Shown piece after piece: positions 9,935 to 16,525 of a stretch of DNA of 64,000 nt. Location: contig NZ_CAUVYE020000024.1 of assembly GCF_963556055.3 (NCBI RefSeq), positions 10,513 through 74,512 of the forward strand, read 5' to 3'. Within the stretch, counting starts at the first letter, position 1. Each line of letters opens with the position of its first letter. Origin of the DNA: an uncultured Cohaesibacter sp. Its GTDB lineage: Bacteria; Pseudomonadota; Alphaproteobacteria; Rhizobiales; Cohaesibacteraceae. The notes below the pieces were generated by a model. That model was not told where the DNA came from and searched no databases. It saw only the letters and a program-made list of their open reading frames with translations. The translations under genes and the position numbers were made by a program.

Positions 9935-11041
9935 CTATTGCAGAGCCTTGATTGCCTCAAGAACAGCTGCGCCCATTTCGCTGGTGGTTACGACCGTGTC
10001 GCCTTCCTTGGCGATATCACCGGTGCGCAGGCCTTTTTCCAGAACGTTGGCAATGGCCTTGTCGAGCATGTCCGCTTCCTTGATCATTTCGAAGCTGTAA
10101 CGCAGCGCCATGGAGAAGGACGCGATCATGGCGATGGGGTTGGCGATGCCTTTGCCTGCGATGTCTGGGGCAGAACCGTGAACCGGTTCATACATGGCCT
10201 TGCGTTTGCCGGTGGTTGCATCCGGTGCGCCGAGGGAAGCCGATGGCAGCATGCCAAGGGATCCTGTCAGCATGGCAGCAACGTCGGAGAGGATGTCGCC
10301 GAACAGGTTGTCGCAGCAGATGACGTCAAACTGTTTCGGGCGGCGGACCAGCTGCATCGCGCAGTTGTCGGCCAGAACATGTTCGAGCGGAGTTTCCGGA
10401 TATTCCTTGGCACCGATGCGGGTCACGACTTCTTTCCAAAGCACGCCGGATTTCATGACATTGTGTTTTTCCGCAGACGCAACGCGGTTCGAACGGGTTT
10501 TGGCAAGGTCGAAGGCAACCCGAGCAATGCGCTCGATTTCCGATGTGGTGTAGAGCTGAGTGTCAACGGCTCGTTTCTGGCCATCTTCCAGCGTGACGAT
10601 TTCTTTTGGCTCACCGAAATAGACGCCACCGGTCAGCTCGCGAACGAGCAGGATATCAAGACCTTCAACCAGTTCCTTTTTCAGCGATGATGAATCTGCA
10701 AGAGCCGGATAGCACAAAGCCGGACGCAGGTTGGCAAACAGGCCCAGATCCTTGCGGAGGCGCAGCAGGCCCGCTTCGGGGCGGGCTTCATACGGTACGT
10801 CTGCCCATTTCGGGCCGCCGACGGCGCCGAAGATAACGGCGTCTGCCGCCATGGCCTTGGCCATGTCTTCTTCCGAGATGGCCACACCATGGGCATCATA
10901 GGCGGATCCGCCCACAAGACCTTCATCTGTTTCGAAAGTGACATCAAGATTGGCGTTCATCCAGTCGATGATCGCTTTCACTTCATTCATGATTTCAGGG
11001 CCGATGCCATCGCCGGGCAGAAGAAAGAGTTTGTGGGACAT
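9935..11041 (-). CDS. leuB: 3-isopropylmalate dehydrogenase
   Basis: MSHKLFLLPGDGIGPEIMNEVKAIIDWM...; LVRELTGGVYFG; NLFGDILSD motifs. Start chosen at ATG 11041 (368 aa); the track ORF extends to 11089. Confidence 0.95.
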   Translation of the reverse strand: MSHKLFLLPGDGIGPEIMNEVKAIIDWMNANLDVTFETDEGLVGGSAYDAHGVAISEEDMAKAMAADAVIFGAVGGPKWADVPYEARPEAGLLRLRKDLGLFANLRPALCYPALADSSSLKKELVEGLDILLVRELTGGVYFGEPKEIVTLEDGQKRAVDTQLYTTSEIERIARVAFDLAKTRSNRVASAEKHNVMKSGVLWKEVVTRIGAKEYPETPLEHVLADNCAMQLVRRPKQFDVICCDNLFGDILSDVAAMLTGSLGMLPSASLGAPDATTGKRKAMYEPVHGSAPDIAGKGIANPIAMIASFSMALRYSFEMIKEADMLDKAIANVLEKGLRTGDIAKEGDTVVTTSEMGAAVLEAIKALQ

Positions 11042-11191
11042 GGGTTCCATTCCAGTTACGATTGGGGTTTCGAAACTGCGCGGACGCAAGGATCGAAAAG
11101 ATAAAGGTCGTTTTGCATTCGATTAATACCGGTTCGGCGTGAATGCAAGCATTAAGCAGCAGGTTCCGCGCCGCTGCCCCGCGATTTGGTA

Positions 11192-11308: not shown

Positions 11309-11914
11309 CTAGACCCAGGGGCGTTCCTTGAGCATTTTACCTTCGAATGTTTCGACGCGGTCGATCTTTTCCATGGTCAGGCCGATATCGTCGAGGCCTT
11401 CGAGCAGGCATTTTTTCTTGAAAGGATCAAGTTCGAAGCTGATCTCGCCGCCATCCGGGCCCTTGATGACCTGATTTTCAAGGTCGATGGTCAAGGTCGC
11501 GTTGGCACCGCGTTCCGCATCATCCATCAGTTTGGCATGATCTTCCTCACTGACGATGATTGGCAGAATGCCGTTCTTGAAGGTGTTGTTATAGAAGATA
11601 TCGGCGAAGCTGGTGGAGATGACGCATTTGATGCCGAAATCCTTGAGTGCCCAAGGGGCATGTTCGCGCGAGGAGCCACAGCCGAAATTGTCGCCGGCAA
11701 CAATGATTTCCGCCTTGCGATAGGCATCCTGATTGAGAATGAAATCGGCATTTTCCGTGCCATCTTCATTATAGCGCATTTCATGGAATAGATTGACGCC
11801 GAGTCCCGAGCGCTTGATCGTTTTCAGGAACTGTTTCGGGATGATCATGTCGGTGTCGATATTGATCAGCGGCATTGGTGCTGCAACAGCAGTCAAGGTG
11901 GTGAATTTTTCCAT
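11309..11914 (-). CDS. leuD: 3-isopropylmalate dehydratase small subunit
   Basis: [39 protein letters not shown]...[17 protein letters not shown]. Start chosen at ATG 11914 (201 aa). Confidence 0.95.
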
Positions 11915-11936
11915 TCTCTTGGCGGTCCTTTGCGAT

Positions 11937-12893
11937 TTAGAGATCGGCAGCGACGAGACCAGTGGTTTCATCGATTCCCATCATGATGTTCATATTCTGT
12001 ATGGCGGCGCCTGACGCCCCTTTGCCCAGATTGTCATAGACGGCGAGAATGACGGCTTGGCCGGTTTCATCATTGCCGTGTACATGGATATGAAGCGAAT
12101 TCGTTCCGTTCAGGCGTTCCGGTGTGATGGCTTCCAGGCGTCCTGCCGCTTGCAGTGGCGCAACCTTGACAAAAATCTCGTTTTTATAGCGTTGAGACAG
12201 GCAGTCATGCAATTCACCTAATTTCGGAGCCTGTTCAAGCGCCCACAGGTTAAGCGGGACGGCGTCGATCATGCCTTGCGCATAGCGACCAACGGCAGGC
12301 TGGAAAACGGGTGGATGCGACAGGCCTGCATAGGCCAGCATTTCCGGTACATGCTTGTGCTGAAGGGTCAGGCCATAGGGCCAGTAGGGCACCGAGACCG
12401 GCGCTTCCTCGCGCTCATAATCGGCGATCATGCTTTTGCCGCCGCCGGAATAGCCCGAAACGGCATTAACCGTGGCGGCAAAATCCTGCGGGATCAGACC
12501 GGCATCGACAAGGGGACGCATGATGGCGATATAGCCTTGCGGATAGCAGCCGGGATTGGCCACGCGCTTGGAGCTGGCAATCGCCTCGCGCTGACCCGGT
12601 GTCATTTCAGCAAAGCCATAGGCCCAGCCGTCCGCAGTTCTATGCGCTGTCGACGCGTCGATGACGCAGGTGTCCTTGTTGTCGATCAGGCTGACAGACT
12701 CGATTGCCGCCGCATCCGGCAGGCAAAGGATTGCGATATCGGCCTCGTTGAGCATCTGTGCCCTGGCTTCGGTGTCCTTGCGCAGGTTATCGGGAAGGCG
12801 CAGCAGTCGGACATCCTGGCGGCCTTCAAGACGGTTCCGAATCTGCAATCCGGTTGTGCCTACTTCGCCATCGATGAATATTTTTGCGCTCAT
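11937..12893 (-). CDS. argC: N-acetyl-gamma-glutamyl-phosphate reductase (short type)
   Basis: 318-aa [25 protein letters not shown]... with the active-site context ANPGCYPQG. Confidence 0.92.
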
Positions 12894-12983: not shown

Positions 12984-13256
12984 TCATCGGGTGAAATGAT
13001 TGACCAGCCACAGGACCAAAATAATTGCAAAGATTGCGCCGCCGATGCGACCAATTCTGGTCCCCCAGACCTCGATCGGGTCATTTCGGTCCATGTCTGC
13101 CGCGCCAAGATGATCCTTGGCCTTGTTTGCCGTTCGGGCAAAGGCGGATGTGCCAAGGGCCTCCCCTTCCATTTCGACACGCTTGAGCGCTCGTTCGGCC
13201 TGTTGCTGCCGAGCGTCATTGCGCTGTTGTCGTGACTGATGGCTCTGCTTTGTCAT
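12984..13256 (-). CDS. Small tail-anchored membrane protein, hypothetical
   Basis: 90-aa ORF with a Q/R-rich polar N-terminus and a single C-terminal hydrophobic helix (IGGAIFAIILVLWLVNHF). It lies 90 nt upstream of argC on the same strand. No family recognised. Confidence 0.5.
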   Translation of the reverse strand: MTKQSHQSRQQRNDARQQQAERALKRVEMEGEALGTSAFARTANKAKDHLGAADMDRNDPIEVWGTRIGRIGGAIFAIILVLWLVNHFTR

Positions 13257-13460
13257 AAATGCATCTTTAGCCTTCTTTTCATTCCGGTTTCAAGCAAAGA
13301 TACGAAGAAGAGATGAAGAGATGTGACCTTTTTGTTCGTTTTCGTATCGCCAGAGGCACTATTGCCGCATTTGGTCTTGACTTGCGGCAATCCATGCCGC
13401 TAAGAGGCTGATTGTGAACCGAGAGGGTTGGGCACGCGTTGCCGCATTCGGGAAAGTGAT

Positions 13461-13574
13461 ATGGCGCTTTTTGTAAAATCAGCAAAGATGGCTCTGATCA
13501 TTGGCAAGACTGCCGATGCGATGGCCGCTGGCCTTACCACACCGACAACAACCACAACTACCACCAAGGTTTAG
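13461..13574 (+). CDS. Candidate Thr-rich leader peptide upstream of asd
   Basis: ATG 13461 (alternative ATG 13488) to TAG 13572-13574 encodes MALFVKSAKMALIIGKTADAMAAGLTTPTTTTTTTKV. Codons 13536-13565 are ACC ACA CCG ACA ACA ACC ACA ACT ACC ACC. A GGGAAAG purine stretch sits just upstream of ATG 13461. The ORF is too short for the ORF track. Confidence 0.5.
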   Translation: MALFVKSAKMALIIGKTADAMAAGLTTPTTTTTTTKV

Positions 13575-13700
13575 TCCCTCTCGCTCCCTGCTCGCTTCCC
13601 CCAGGGATGTGAGGGGGAGCGGAACCGCCTGTTCGAAAGCAAAAGCTTGAGACCGGCGGCAACCTTAGGGGGAGCTACTTGGATCAGGAGATCATTGACA
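13575..13700 (+). promoter_or_regulatory. asd leader RNA with mutually exclusive CU-rich/GA-rich pairings
   Basis: Four segments: A CGCTCCCT (13582-13589), B GCTTCCCCC (13594-13602), C GGGGGAGCG (13613-13621), D GGGGGAGC (13668-13675). C can pair with A or B, and B can pair with C or D. The asd SD AGGAGA is at 13686-13691. No U-tract follows the B:C stem. Confidence 0.4.
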
Positions 13701-14745
13701 ATGGGTTATAAAGTTGCAGTTGTCGGGGCCACGGGCAATGTCGGTCGTGAGATGCTCGATATTCTTGCCGAACGCGGTTTTTCCCGCTGATGAAGTCGTA
13801 GCATTGGCGTCTAGCCGTTCCAAGGGCAAGGATGTGTCCTTCGGAGACAAAAACCTGAAATGCCAGGTGCTGGACAATTATGATTTTTCAGACACCGATT
13901 TCTGTCTGATGTCGGCAGGTGGCAGCACCTCTGCCGAATGGGCACCAAAAATCGCCGCACAGGGCTGTATCGTGGTCGATAACAGCTCTCAATGGCGTTA
14001 TGACGAGCGTATTCCGCTGATCGTGCCGGAAGTCAATGCTCATGTGCTGGAAGAGTGGATCAAGAAAAAAGATCGCATCAATATCATTGCCAACCCGAAC
14101 TGCTCAACGGCTCAGTTGCTGGTTGCTTTGAAACCTCTGCATGACAAGGCAACCATCAAGCGCGTCGTTGTGTCCACCTATCAGTCCGTTTCCGGGGCTG
14201 GCAAGGAGGCCATGGATGAACTTTTCACCCAGACCCGTGCGGTGTTCGTGTCCGATCCGATCGAAGTGAAGAAATTCACCAAGCGCATTGCCTACAACGT
14301 CATCCCTCATATCGACAAATTCATGGATGATGGCTCCACCAAGGAAGAATGGAAGGTGGTCGCCGAAACCAAGAAAATGCTCGATCCGAAAATCAAGGTG
14401 ACCTGCACCGCTGTTCGCGTGCCGGTATTCGTCTCTCACGGTGAAGCTGTGAACCTTGAATTTGAAAATCCCATTTCCGCCGATGAAGCACGCGATATCC
14501 TGCGCGAAGCGCCTGGCTGTCTTGTGGTCGACAAGCGTGAAGATGGTGGTTACATCACCCCGGTGGAAGCGGCCGGTGAAGATGCGACCTATATTTCCCG
14601 TATTCGTGAAGACTCCACCGTTGATAATGGCCTCAATATGTGGGTGGTCTCTGACAACCTGCGCAAGGGTGCCGCGCTCAACACGGTTCAGATTGCCGAA
14701 GCCCTCGTCAACAAGGGGCTGGTCAAACCGCGTTCCGAGGCTTAA
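13701..14745 (+). pseudogene. asd: Aspartate-semialdehyde dehydrogenase, interrupted by an apparent +1 frameshift in a T5 run (13778-13782)
   Basis: ATG 13701 gives MGYKVAVVGATGNVGREMLDILAERGF, then a stop at 13788. The track ORF 13714..14745 continues in the next frame with FPADEVVALASSRSKGKDV... Removing one T restores a roughly 347-aa Asd. The extra base is probably a sequencing artefact. Confidence 0.9.
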
Positions 14746-14828: not shown

Positions 14829-15471
14829 TCACACCTTGATGAAGGTGCCTTTTTCTTCCTCGTAATATTCAAGCTCTCCATCGGAAATGTCAAACCATGC
14901 GCCATGCAGGCTGAGGGTTCCCGCAGCGACGGCGTCTTTCACGAATCTGTAGGAATAGAGATTTTCCAGCGAATGGATGATCGAAGTCCGTTCCAACATG
15001 CCGCAATGGTCCAGTTCGGGGCGGTTCATGGCCTTGAAGCGGATCGGGTTGTCGGCGGCCTCAAGCTGGCCTGACCATTGTCCGATATAGTCGCTTTCGG
15101 ACAGGGGTTCTGAATCTTCGGCCAAATAGGCCTTCACGCCTCCACAGCGGCCATGGCCCATGATCACGATATGCTCGACCTTCAGGCCGTTGACGGCAAA
15201 TTCGATGGCTGCCGTGGTGCCGTGAATGCCATGATCCTGCGATGACTTGTGGGGGATGATGTTGGCGACGTTGCGCATGACAAAGATCTCGCCCGGACCT
15301 GCATCAAAGATGATCTCAGGCGCGGCACGGCTGTCGCAGCATCCAACAAGCATGATCTTCGGACTTTGGCCTTTTTTCTGCCAGCTTCTGATAACGGCCC
15401 TGTTCGGTCGGGAATCGTCCCTTTTTGAACTCGGCATAGCCTTCGAGCAATCGTTGCGGTAGTTGGACCAT
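14829..15471 (-). pseudogene. Beta-class carbonic anhydrase, apparent +1 frameshift in an A6 run (plus-strand T6 at 15372-15377)
   Basis: ATG 15471 gives MVQLPQRLLEGYAEFKKGRFPTEQGRYQKLAEK. The track ORF frame continues GQSPKIMLVGCCDSRAAPEIIFDAGPGEIFVMRNVANIIP...GHGRCGG. Removing one A joins them into about 213 aa. Confidence 0.88.
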
Positions 15472-15568
15472 GGCATCCTCATCTGCAAGTTAGTGGATAT
15501 TACGTATGACATCTCGCGCTACTTGGCCAGAAAATCAAGGTGCAGACTGAAATTTCCTGGCGTTCGGG

Positions 15569-16525
15569 TCAATCTTTTTTGCTTCTGCTGACCGAAGTGG
15601 CTTTACTGACCATTCCGATCTGGCGCATTTGAACCATGGCCATTGGGGATTGGAAGCGATCAGAGAAACGGGCGACTTCAAGATCGCGATAGCCGTTTCG
15701 GGTGGAGCGGGAGACAACCTCCAGAACACCGCTTGAGGCCAGTTTGAGGGCCTGAGCGAGCGGCGCTCCCGGCCATGACGCGTGCCAGAAACAGTGCAGC
15801 GGTCATGTCGCCGGTGCCATTTTGCGGTTTGGGCACTGCCGGATGTTCGCACAGAATTGGCAAATCGGCTTCACCTTCGATTGCTCTTGTTACCAACAGA
15901 TTGGCAATGGCATTGCGCATCATCGCAAAGGCACTGGTAACCAGAGTGGTTTGGCAGCCGAGTTTCGCAGCCTGTCGGATCAGGCCGTCATTATTCTCCT
16001 CGTTCGATTGTGTCAGCCAGTTGAGCTCGAACCGGTTGGGGGTGATGATGGTCGGCGCGCGGCAACAATTGTGCCTGAATGGCCTCGGCAATCTCTTGCG
16101 AGACATATAAGCCCTCGCGATCCCCGATGACAGGATCGCAGAGAAAGATAGCGTCCGGATTTGCCGCTTTCAGGCTGTCTGCCAACCTGGCGATGGCCGC
16201 GACCTGATCGACTGAGCCCAGATACCCCGAATAGAGCGCTCCCACTTGGGCAAAGTCGGGATGACGGGATAGATCTTCAAGGCTTTTGGCAAAGAGCTCG
16301 GGATCTATCTGTTGTCGTGTGGCGGGGCCATGTCCGGGATGCCAGGGGAGAATGACGGTGGGGACTTCCCAAAACCGGGTGGCCGAGCCGTTCCAGGGCA
16401 AAGGCAGCGGCGCGGTTGCCCACCGCGCCAGCCATGACGTGAGAGGAAATGACAATCACCGGTTTTGCCTCGACCGGAGCATTGGGATTGTTCGGGGAGC
16501 CCGGCAGGGATGTCATTTCACTCAT
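15569..16525 (-). pseudogene. Pyridoxal/pyridoxine/pyridoxamine kinase (PdxK/PdxY family) with three apparent +1 frameshifts
   Basis: Pieces 16277..16525, 15991..16455, 15678..16106 and a fourth frame ending at TGA 15569-15571 join as ...FALERLGHPVWEVPTVILPWHPGHG...LLPRADIITPNRFELNWL...NGTGDMTAALFLARVMAGAPLAQALKLASSGVLEVV... The extra bases sit in A4 16381-16384, GG 16050-16051 and CCC 15768-15770 (plus-strand coordinates). Confidence 0.85.

Follow-up and report, generated by a model that had tools for sequence, protein, structure and literature searches.

The asd gene (aspartate-semialdehyde dehydrogenase) in a 64,000-nucleotide (nt) stretch of DNA from an uncultured Cohaesibacter sp. (contig NZ_CAUVYE020000024.1; this whole stretch is called the window below, and coordinates refer to it) is preceded by a short open reading frame (ORF) that ends in a run of threonine codons, and then by CU-rich and GA-rich segments that are predicted to pair in alternative ways. 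Judging from the sequences of the window and its relatives, this element is very probably an amino-acid-sensing leader that reads tRNA charging and regulates asd. A first-pass annotation, made from the window sequence alone, had proposed that a Thr leader read by ribosomes controls asd as an attenuator. The first part of that idea has gained comparative evidence from our analysis, but an attenuator in the sense of enterobacterial thrL is not borne out.

A threonine- and lysine-rich leader ORF upstream of asd

The leader ORF starts at ATG 13461 on the + strand, has an in-frame ATG at 13488, and ends after 37 codons at TAG 13572-13574, which is 126 nt from the asd ATG (13701-13703). Nine of the ten codons from 13536 to 13565 (ACC ACA CCG ACA ACA ACC ACA ACT ACC ACC) encode threonine, and this is the top single-residue run of the window in all six frames, tied only with its own reverse complement. 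The coordinates that the first-pass annotation had given for the ORF, the Thr run, the downstream segments A to D and the asd Shine-Dalgarno (SD) sequence were all exact when we re-read the sequence. The features needed here are the following.

13376-13405, + strand: putative sigma-70-type promoter, with -35 CTTGAC at 13376-13381, a 17-18 nt spacer and a -10-like CTAAGA at 13400-13405
13461-13574, + strand: leader ORF of 37 codons, encoding MALFVKSAKMALIIGKTADAMAAGLTTPTTTTTTTKV and a stop; the start lies 36-37 codons before the stop in all Cohaesibacter relatives
13536-13565, + strand: putative regulatory codon run, Thr in 9 of 10 codons (4 ACC, 4 ACA, 1 ACT, 0 ACG), followed by Lys-Val-stop
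13701-14745, + strand: asd (aspartate-semialdehyde dehydrogenase; NF011456, 506 bits), with its frame broken by an additional T within 13780-13784

ACA accounts for four of the nine Thr codons of the run (44%), as compared with 14% of the Thr codons in the long ORFs of the window; the run is otherwise pure Thr, and the only Lys codon of the tail is AAG. Differences between Cohaesibacter relatives in the leader ORF consist of ACA/ACT synonymous swaps and one in-frame 3-nt indel. The putative promoter predicts a transcription start near 13411-13414. Its -35 hexamer is identical across the window and loci L001 and L002/3 (L-numbers are those of the sample described below), and CTTGAC-N16-17-CTAAT-like promoters precede the leader ORF in other groups, with an exact CTTGAC in 12/60 cases and in 0/60 of the control. 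A sequence scan found no promoter-like site between the leader ORF and asd.

Our comparison drew equally on reference genomes and metagenomes, with 80 asd loci from each. For each locus, the 450 nt upstream of asd were scanned for ORF ends rich in Thr and Lys, and 151 loci were scored. A Thr/Lys-rich ORF tail precedes asd in 73.5% of these 151 loci at a score of at least 7, and in 83% at a score of at least 6; the reverse-complement and asd-internal controls both gave 0%. The tail ends 75-155 nt upstream of asd in most of the 160 loci, in many genera of Hyphomicrobiales, including Cohaesibacter, Rhizobium, Mesorhizobium, the Brucella group, Phyllobacterium, bee-gut Bartonella, Pseudovibrio and Prosthecomicrobium. 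Immediately before the stop codon, the tail reads ...KTTAKTTTKTV in Rhizobium, Sinorhizobium and Mesorhizobium, ...TATCIKTTTKTV in Falsochrobactrum (Brucella group), ...AKQTAKTTTKTV in Phyllobacterium, ...IIGHKKTTKKII in bee-gut Bartonella, ...TTHTTMTTKTTV in Pseudovibrio, ...TTTKTKTTMTTATTVAG in the Prosthecomicrobium group and ...TKTTKTP in an unplaced metagenomic group. Aligning the asd upstream regions of relatives, which the first-pass annotation had recommended, thus finds the ORF and its Thr-rich tail kept far beyond the genus. The sensor that it had proposed was one for Thr, and the Thr run is indeed conserved, but across the family the codons are Thr plus Lys, with occasional Met or Ile codons, and Thr dominates only in Cohaesibacter.

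Several properties of the ORF suggest that it is translated and that its tail is what matters. In a set of 62 non-redundant representatives, Thr makes up 41% of the last 12 codons, Lys 22% and Ala 12%, and Thr falls to 7.7% in the N-terminal part; only the Thr/Lys tail is conserved, and the N-terminal ~25 residues are not. Codon-position entropy in the Thr/Lys frame is 0.99, 1.24 and 1.51 bits for positions one, two and three, this frame is open for at least 30 codons in 98% of the representatives (47-63% in the other frames), and a recognisable SD precedes the leader ORF in 66% of members. Lysine is encoded by AAA in 89% of cases in the last 12 leader codons (L004-L158), as opposed to 8% in the adjacent asd genes, where AAG is used in 92%. 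G-ending Thr codons are not avoided in the leaders, so the AAA bias looks like a choice of rare codons rather than avoidance of G. To judge by the sequences, the AAA bias, the enrichment of ACA in the window and the coding-type variation are hallmarks of regulatory codons.

A member of this family has been seen before. Hadjeras et al., 2023 (Microlife uqad012; PMC10117765) describe SEP5 of S. meliloti, a protein of 39 amino acids (MRPKGSSIAALNLPAHHAGPISHFSLARKTTAKTTTKTV) encoded between SM2011_c04408 and c04410, in the 5' untranslated region (UTR) of a gene named 'aspartate dehydrogenase', and suggest that it is 'possibly a leader peptide'. Translation of SEP5 was shown by ribosome profiling (Ribo-seq) and, with a tagged fusion that was stable and found in the soluble fraction, by Western blot; SEP5 was classed as 'intergenic', not 'on sRNA' (small RNA), and was said to be conserved only in Sinorhizobium, and the paper gives no RNA structure, mechanism or test (PMC10117765). 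SEP5, which ends in KTTAKTTTKTV and whose last 36 nt are identical to the asd leader tail of L004, belongs to the same family as the window leader. The latter differs in its pure Thr run with a single Lys (AAG), in its N-terminus, and in RNA helices P1 and P2 (see below), which have diverged beyond detection by our covariance model. A full-text literature search found only this paper to mention the element. We detected no relevant match at the locus when the whole window was searched with Rfam at the gathering threshold, and only a spurious match to Pab91 for 13200-13800 at E<=10; five leader peptides had no match in Pfam or NCBIfam, and Thr_leader RF00506 and Pfam Leader_Thr gave no sequence or model match. 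The first-pass annotation knew of no described Thr leader for asd, which holds in that there is no curated family but overlooks the 2023 suggestion that SEP5 may be a leader peptide. The family was, then, glimpsed in SEP5 but barely described, and its breadth and RNA architecture are new here.

Predicted alternative RNA pairings between the leader ORF and asd

The RNA that follows the leader stop in the window, together with a conserved block near the predicted 5' end, can be divided as follows.

13415-13428, + strand: conserved 5' block TGAACCGAGAGGGT, which holds 'G0' (CGAGAGGG, 13420-13427), an exact complement of A0
13576-13589, + strand: CU1, beginning 2 nt past the stop and made up of A0 (CCCTCTCG, 13576-13583) and segment A (CGCTCCCT, 13582-13589)
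13594-13602, + strand: CU2, which is segment B (GCTTCCCCC) and is predicted to pair with C only when A is masked (0.65)
13613-13621, + strand: GA1, which is segment C (GGGGGAGCG), the 3' strand of a hairpin at 13582-13621
13625-13659, + strand: P2 hairpin (CCGCC...GGCGG), a spacer between GA1 and GA2 that is present in every predicted fold
13661-13678, + strand: GA2 region, segment D (GGGGGAGC, 13668-13675) and its flanks, which supply the 3' strand of P0, the long-range helix closing a three-way junction
13682-13693, + strand: asd ribosome-binding site (RBS), with SD AGGAGA at 13686-13691 inside the palindrome GATC-AGGA-GATC

In the predicted minimum free energy (MFE) structure of 13572-13700 (-58.6 kcal/mol), A pairs with C, P2 forms, and D pairs with the stop codon and A0 (13575-13581); the predicted probabilities are 0.96 for A with C and 0.5-0.6 for A0 with D. 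The A:C pairing extends to a 40-nt hairpin (13582-13621) worth -27.9 kcal/mol alone, and the B..C hairpin is worth -17.9 kcal/mol. A fold with B:C and A:D totals -51.2 kcal/mol (7.4 kcal/mol worse than the MFE), and one with B:D totals no better than -42.0 kcal/mol (16.6 kcal/mol worse). The claim in the first-pass annotation that C can pair with either A or B therefore stands, with A:C favoured, and B:C is supported by a compensatory change from C-G to G-C at 13593:13621 between the window and L002; the B:D alternative that it had also drawn is energetically poor. The fold z-score of the region is modest (-2.0).

Masking a ribosome that terminates at the stop codon (to 13586) moves C to B in the predicted fold (0.65) and raises the unpaired probability of D from 0.16 to 0.50, whereas with the mask of a ribosome stalled inside the Thr run the predicted fold is that of free RNA. 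The asd SD is predicted to be unpaired with a probability of 0.45-0.68 in all modelled states. The predicted folds contain mutually exclusive pairings that depend on ribosome position, and folding with the ribosome footprint masked, a check proposed with the original annotation, shifts C to B once A is covered, as it had reasoned. Its reasoning about covering and uncovering survives only for the terminating ribosome, which switches the pairing; the stalled ribosome falls short of the post-stop segments. A ribosome waiting at a hungry codon in the A site shields no more than ~9-12 nt downstream, such that stalling on most of the Thr/Lys codons cannot touch the segments past the stop, and a simple cover/uncover logic would consequently need another output.

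Parts of this region are identical in the closest relatives: the sequence CCTCTCGCTCCCTG (13577-13590) and the sequence GGATCAGGAGATCAT around the asd SD are shared by the window, L001 and L002/3, and the 5' block TGAACCGAGAGGGT is invariant in the window, L001 and L002/L003 and is also present in L081. The stem sequence of P2 is wholly different in L002 and L081, with the hairpin retained; in the window, P2 is not followed by a U-tract. G0 (13420-13427) and A0 (13576-13583) form an inverted repeat with 8/8 matches, an 8-nt match that is by itself near chance expectation; if they paired, the entire leader ORF might lie in the loop between them, with the duplex stacked on the D helix. We also observed that the last Thr-Thr-Lys-Val codons (13558-13571, CTACCACCAAGGTT) are 79% complementary to 13661-13674 (AACCTTAGGGGGAG), overlapping D, and that the equivalent sequences of L002, CCAAGGU/ACUUUGG, likewise pair; the regulatory codons thus have a possible partner beside the asd RBS. 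Two further candidates were rejected: an 8-nt repeat at 13438-13445 and 13656-13663, which is not kept in L001 and which we treat as chance, and a second upstream ORF from TTG 13679 overlapping the asd start, which is not conserved in L001 or L002.

The family-wide order of elements is ORF tail, stop, CU1, CU2, a GA1 hairpin, P2, GA2, SD and ATG. The window shows this layout in full and shares it with its Cohaesibacter relatives L001, L002, L003 and L081. An outer helix around at least two hairpins is present in the MFE structures of 47/62 representatives, as against 26% of dinucleotide shuffles. We built a hand-annotated covariance model (R1) with three helices (P0, P1 and P2) from 24 sequences of the main group of the family, and realigned 34 sequences with it. 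The realignment is fitted to the model and so is biased toward the structure; as a control, we slid the 3' partners of the helices. In the 34 sequences, 78.5% of helix cells are paired, as compared with 41-58% when the 3' partners are slid, and P0, P1 and P2 have 47 double-change cells, as compared with 20 at most in the slid controls, a number that 0/500 shuffles reach. The P0 core is 94.8% paired in the main group, with exchanges from UA to CG, UA to AU and CG to UA. The slid controls argue that the covariation signal is real despite the model-fitted alignment. The compensatory changes for which the first-pass annotation had asked are present, in the stems of the main-group model.

Read by eye, the long-range helix takes different sequences in different groups: CCCUCUCC/GGAGAGGG in most members, CUCUCUCC/GGAGAGAG in bee-gut Bartonella, CCCUCACC/GGUGAGGG in L097 and L052, CCCCUCC/GGAGGGG in L009, L030 and L091, GUCUCUCUCG/CGAGAGAGAC in L054, and GCUCCCU/GGGGAGC in the window. 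A search of the window with R1 gave no match; Cohaesibacter keeps the design with different sequences. The distance between GA2 and the SD is 2, ~5, 10 or 15-20 nt across the family, and 2 nt in the main group. In L015, L024 and L094, 60-80 nt are inserted between GCGGAGAGA (GA2) and the asd SD, and the 9-nt inverted repeat on either side of the insertion, GAGCATGAT...ATCATGCTC, could fold it into a self-contained hairpin; L027 has another inserted hairpin, followed by TTTG. A metagenomic subgroup (L139-L158; Asd ~72% identical) has the tail ...TKTTKT(P/A) before the stop and the segments CUUUUCCCCG / GUCUCCCG / CGGGGAGAGG / GCGGGGGCG, which mirror the two-CU, two-GA logic of the window with unrelated sequences. 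A further observation concerns the conserved Ala codon in the middle of the tail, GCC, which makes a GGCC that recurs after the stop as UUGGCC in the main and Rhizobium groups. The two GGCC sequences might pair in the main group: they co-occur there, but this is confounded with phylogeny, and the second GGCC is absent from the window.

Other approaches to the pairing gave little. RNAalifold returned no structure for a 53-sequence MAFFT alignment, which was too gapped. An alignment-free comparison of cognate and non-cognate duplex energies between post-stop and pre-ATG sequences gave a weak signal (best -21.3 vs -20.0 kcal/mol), as the CU and GA segments pair promiscuously. An all-against-all column covariation scan for a partner of the post-stop block UCCCUUGGCC was uninformative, being dominated by Y-versus-G columns, and partner predictions for the 12 nt after the stop were heterogeneous over the family.

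The sequences of P1 and P2 are strongly conserved inside the main group, and P1/P2 and the junction and loop sequences are entirely different between Cohaesibacter and the main group. A riboswitch with a conserved ligand core would be expected to show a common junction or loop sequence; we see none, nor any Rfam match. This bears on the broader alternative that the ORF is not a sensor, and that the locus encodes a small functional protein, or is an RNA element that binds a protein, an sRNA or a ligand and contains an incidental frame. We consider this improbable. Tagged SEP5 was stable and was recovered from the soluble fraction (PMC10117765), which would suit a functional protein, and the high sequence conservation of P1 and P2 within the main group would suit a binding site. 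Against that, it is the Thr/Lys tail and not the N-terminal 25 residues that is conserved; the rare AAA codons, the branch-point gene of the aspartate family and the position of the tail at the 3' end of the ORF all fit a sensor; and the complete difference of P1/P2 between Cohaesibacter and the main group leaves no conserved aptamer core. The asd RNA motif of Lactobacillales (RF01732) is likewise a structured RNA upstream of asd, yet it is unrelated and has no leader ORF.

How the leader might switch asd

We searched for an intrinsic terminator in 13405-13700 with two scans (a terminator scan, and our own scan for a hairpin with a U-tract) and found none, confirming the caveat in the first-pass annotation that no U-tract follows the B:C hairpin; a hairpin with a U-tract is also missing from 43/62 representatives. 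The 'intergenic' listing of SEP5 agrees, if weakly, with there being no stable terminated leader RNA. With modelled ribosomes placed on the leader, neither the SD nor the 50 nt preceding the ATG became systematically more or less accessible in the predictions, whether for the window or for the 62 representatives. The label of a thrL-like attenuator does not fit a window that has no terminator and whose asd SD accessibility is unmoved by modelled ribosomes.

These negative results bear directly on classical attenuation of the thrL/trpL type, in which B:C or P2 would act as an intrinsic terminator set by the position of the leader ribosome. We consider it very unlikely as the general explanation. 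The A:C and B:C alternatives do respond to a modelled ribosome at the stop, and in Brucella-, Phyllobacterium-, Bartonella- and some Mesorhizobium-type members the GC-rich P2 is followed by UUUU, UUUAU or UUUUUAU (with GCGGGTTTTTAT in L075; likewise in loci L012, L009, L041, L050 and L134). Against this, the hairpin with U-tract is lacking in the window and in the majority of representatives, as given above, and no antiterminator partner that we could find for P2 was convincing. Intrinsic termination may operate in part of the family; Cohaesibacter, Rhizobium and many others cannot use it. Enterobacterial thrL (RF00506) resembles the window leader in having a short Thr-codon ORF before an aspartate-family gene, and in its mutually exclusive pairings. 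It differs in sensing Thr and Ile rather than Thr and Lys, in its canonical hairpin and U-tract, the latter absent from the window, and in having 21 codons before thrABC rather than 37 before asd. The best-studied ribosome-dependent attenuator of the same order, trpL/rnTrpL of S. meliloti, shows the principle at work there; it has a 14-codon leaderless ORF and a canonical terminator yielding a stable sRNA (PMC6614838). The asd leader has neither such a terminator nor an annotated sRNA.

We favour an explanation in which a tRNA-charging leader and its CU/GA junction act through Rho, and would put its chances not far below even. The candidate site is as follows.

13527-13606, + strand: candidate Rho loading region, C-rich and G-poor (35 C and 13 G in 80 nt), running from the ORF tail across the stop into the CU segments

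The run of Thr codons would make ribosome transit depend on charged tRNA-Thr, as would Thr and Lys codons (the latter the rare AAA) in most relatives. With Thr (or Lys) plentiful, ribosomes would reach the stop, unzip CU1 and leave, and their departure would expose a C-rich, G-poor stretch of ~60-80 nt made up of the ORF tail and the CU segments; Rho could load on this stretch and terminate transcription before asd or early in it. With charged tRNA scarce, ribosomes parked on the Thr/Lys codons would cover the C-rich stretch, the CU segments would remain locked to GA1 and GA2, Rho would be excluded and asd would be transcribed. In the Rho model, starvation would turn asd on, which is the expected direction. 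The C/G ratio of 13527-13606 (2.69) is at the 99.9th percentile of 80-nt windows in the 64 kb, and across the family C outnumbers G between -40 and +30 relative to the leader stop, after which G outnumbers C. For the output itself, ribosome-stall control of Rho-dependent premature termination, our confidence is tentative and somewhat below an even chance. We put forward more tentatively still, as a possibility short of probable, the general form of the proposal: an order-wide, terminator-less leader that reads at least two aspartate-family tRNAs (Thr, Lys via AAA, and sometimes Met/Ile), in which CU/GA helices couple ribosome traffic to Rho, to entry of the 30S subunit, or to both.

There are precedents for a Rho output without an intrinsic terminator in tnaC-tnaA (E. 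coli), mgtL/mgtA and orf34/speF (Salmonella). In tnaC, mgtL and speFL, an arrested leader ribosome hides a C-rich Rho site near the stop, or remodels the leader. In tnaC, the ribosome arrests at the stop because free Trp acts on its nascent peptide, unlike the arrest at hungry codons that we propose for the asd leader, and the CU/GA three-way junction of the asd leader has no counterpart in the tnaC, mgtL and speF systems.

Control could alternatively be translational, with the CU segments mimicking anti-SD sequences and the GA segments serving as decoys or standby sites that resemble an SD, such that ribosome traffic sets the pairing of GA2 and thereby the start of 30S subunits on asd. We regard this as unlikely, though well worth keeping in view. 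P0 always has CU in its 5' strand and GA in its 3' strand, and the covariation keeps this purine/pyrimidine asymmetry; in the main group, 2 nt separate GA2 from the SD and GGAGAGGGACAGGAG is nearly invariant; the MFE structures of the Rhizobium group pair GCUCUCU with the SD-proximal AGAGAGC; the insertion repeat GAGCATGAT/ATCATGCTC of L015/L024, if paired, would keep GA2 near the SD (by eye); and the CU1 mask frees D in the window, as described above. Occlusion of main RBSs by upstream SD-like sites occupied by ribosomes has been proposed in S. meliloti (PMC13285730). The indifference of the SD and the 50 nt before the ATG to ribosome masks speaks against translational control, as does the variable spacing between GA2 and the SD. 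Moreover, D is freed in the replete state and not in the starved state, and free D would thus have to inhibit asd for feedback to result. Translational attenuation of ermC/cat shares with the asd leader an ORF and alternative SD/anti-SD-like pairings before the RBS; there, the ribosome stalled by antibiotic frees a sequestered SD, whereas the asd SD is predicted to be accessible in all states.

Returning to the Rho model, several points weigh against it or against the leader as a whole. The SD of the leader ORF is weak in Cohaesibacter (in the window, GGGAAAG, -4.3 kcal/mol). The C-richness follows automatically from ACN codons and CU strands and is not independent evidence for a Rho utilisation (rut) site; partly for this reason, our ranking of Rho first and translational control second is soft. 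The Rho model does not require conserved A:C and B:C alternatives, and does not explain the closeness of GA2 to the SD (2 nt) in the main group. Once the ribosome is released, CU1 would be expected to re-form its pairs in milliseconds, sooner than Rho can load. Finally, the pairing of a CU segment with the SD-proximal AGAGAGC in the MFE structures of Rhizobium and Sinorhizobium favours translational control there, and P2 followed by UUUU(U) in L075, L009, L041 and L134 hints at intrinsic termination in part of the family.

Genomic context and significance

The Asd encoded in the window is 97% identical to that of Cohaesibacter marisflavi. At codon ~27 of asd, a T-run contains an extra T (GGTTTTTCCCGCT, as compared with GGTTTTCCCGCT in L001), and the frame is intact in L001, L002 and L081; the frameshift is either a homopolymer sequencing error or the mark of a recent pseudogene. 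Downstream of asd lie a carbonic anhydrase gene (14829-15512, - strand) and three overlapping ORFs on the - strand between 15678 and 16525 (15678-16106, 15991-16455 and 16277-16525) that resemble one pyridoxal-kinase-like gene in three frames. Taken with the asd frameshift, this split gene points to indel errors in the assembly. Divergent from the asd leader is a 90-aa (amino acid) ORF (12984-13256, - strand), Arg/Gln-rich with a hydrophobic C-terminus and no NCBIfam match, and further upstream, also on the minus strand, are argC (11937-12893), leuD (11309-11971) and leuB (9935-11089).

Asd supplies Thr, Lys, Met, Ile and diaminopimelate and stands at a committed branch point; the gene is essential, and serves as a balanced-lethal marker and as a drug target. 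To our knowledge, next to nothing has been described on the regulation of asd in alphaproteobacteria. Sensing by leader peptides is known in principle; the proposed sensing of Lys codons, the order-wide spread, asd as the target and the terminator-less CU/GA design are new. For annotation, the family accounts for a recurrent 'hypothetical' small ORF and a structured 5' UTR that lie outside the curated libraries. If our reading is true, the family would provide the first leader peptide that senses lysine codons, show amino-acid sensing at work in nature with no canonical terminator, and represent an attenuator design of its own in Alphaproteobacteria that include Brucella, Bartonella, Agrobacterium and Sinorhizobium. 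The Thr/Lys leader would then offer a concrete, testable control element for an order that contains both plant symbionts and animal pathogens.

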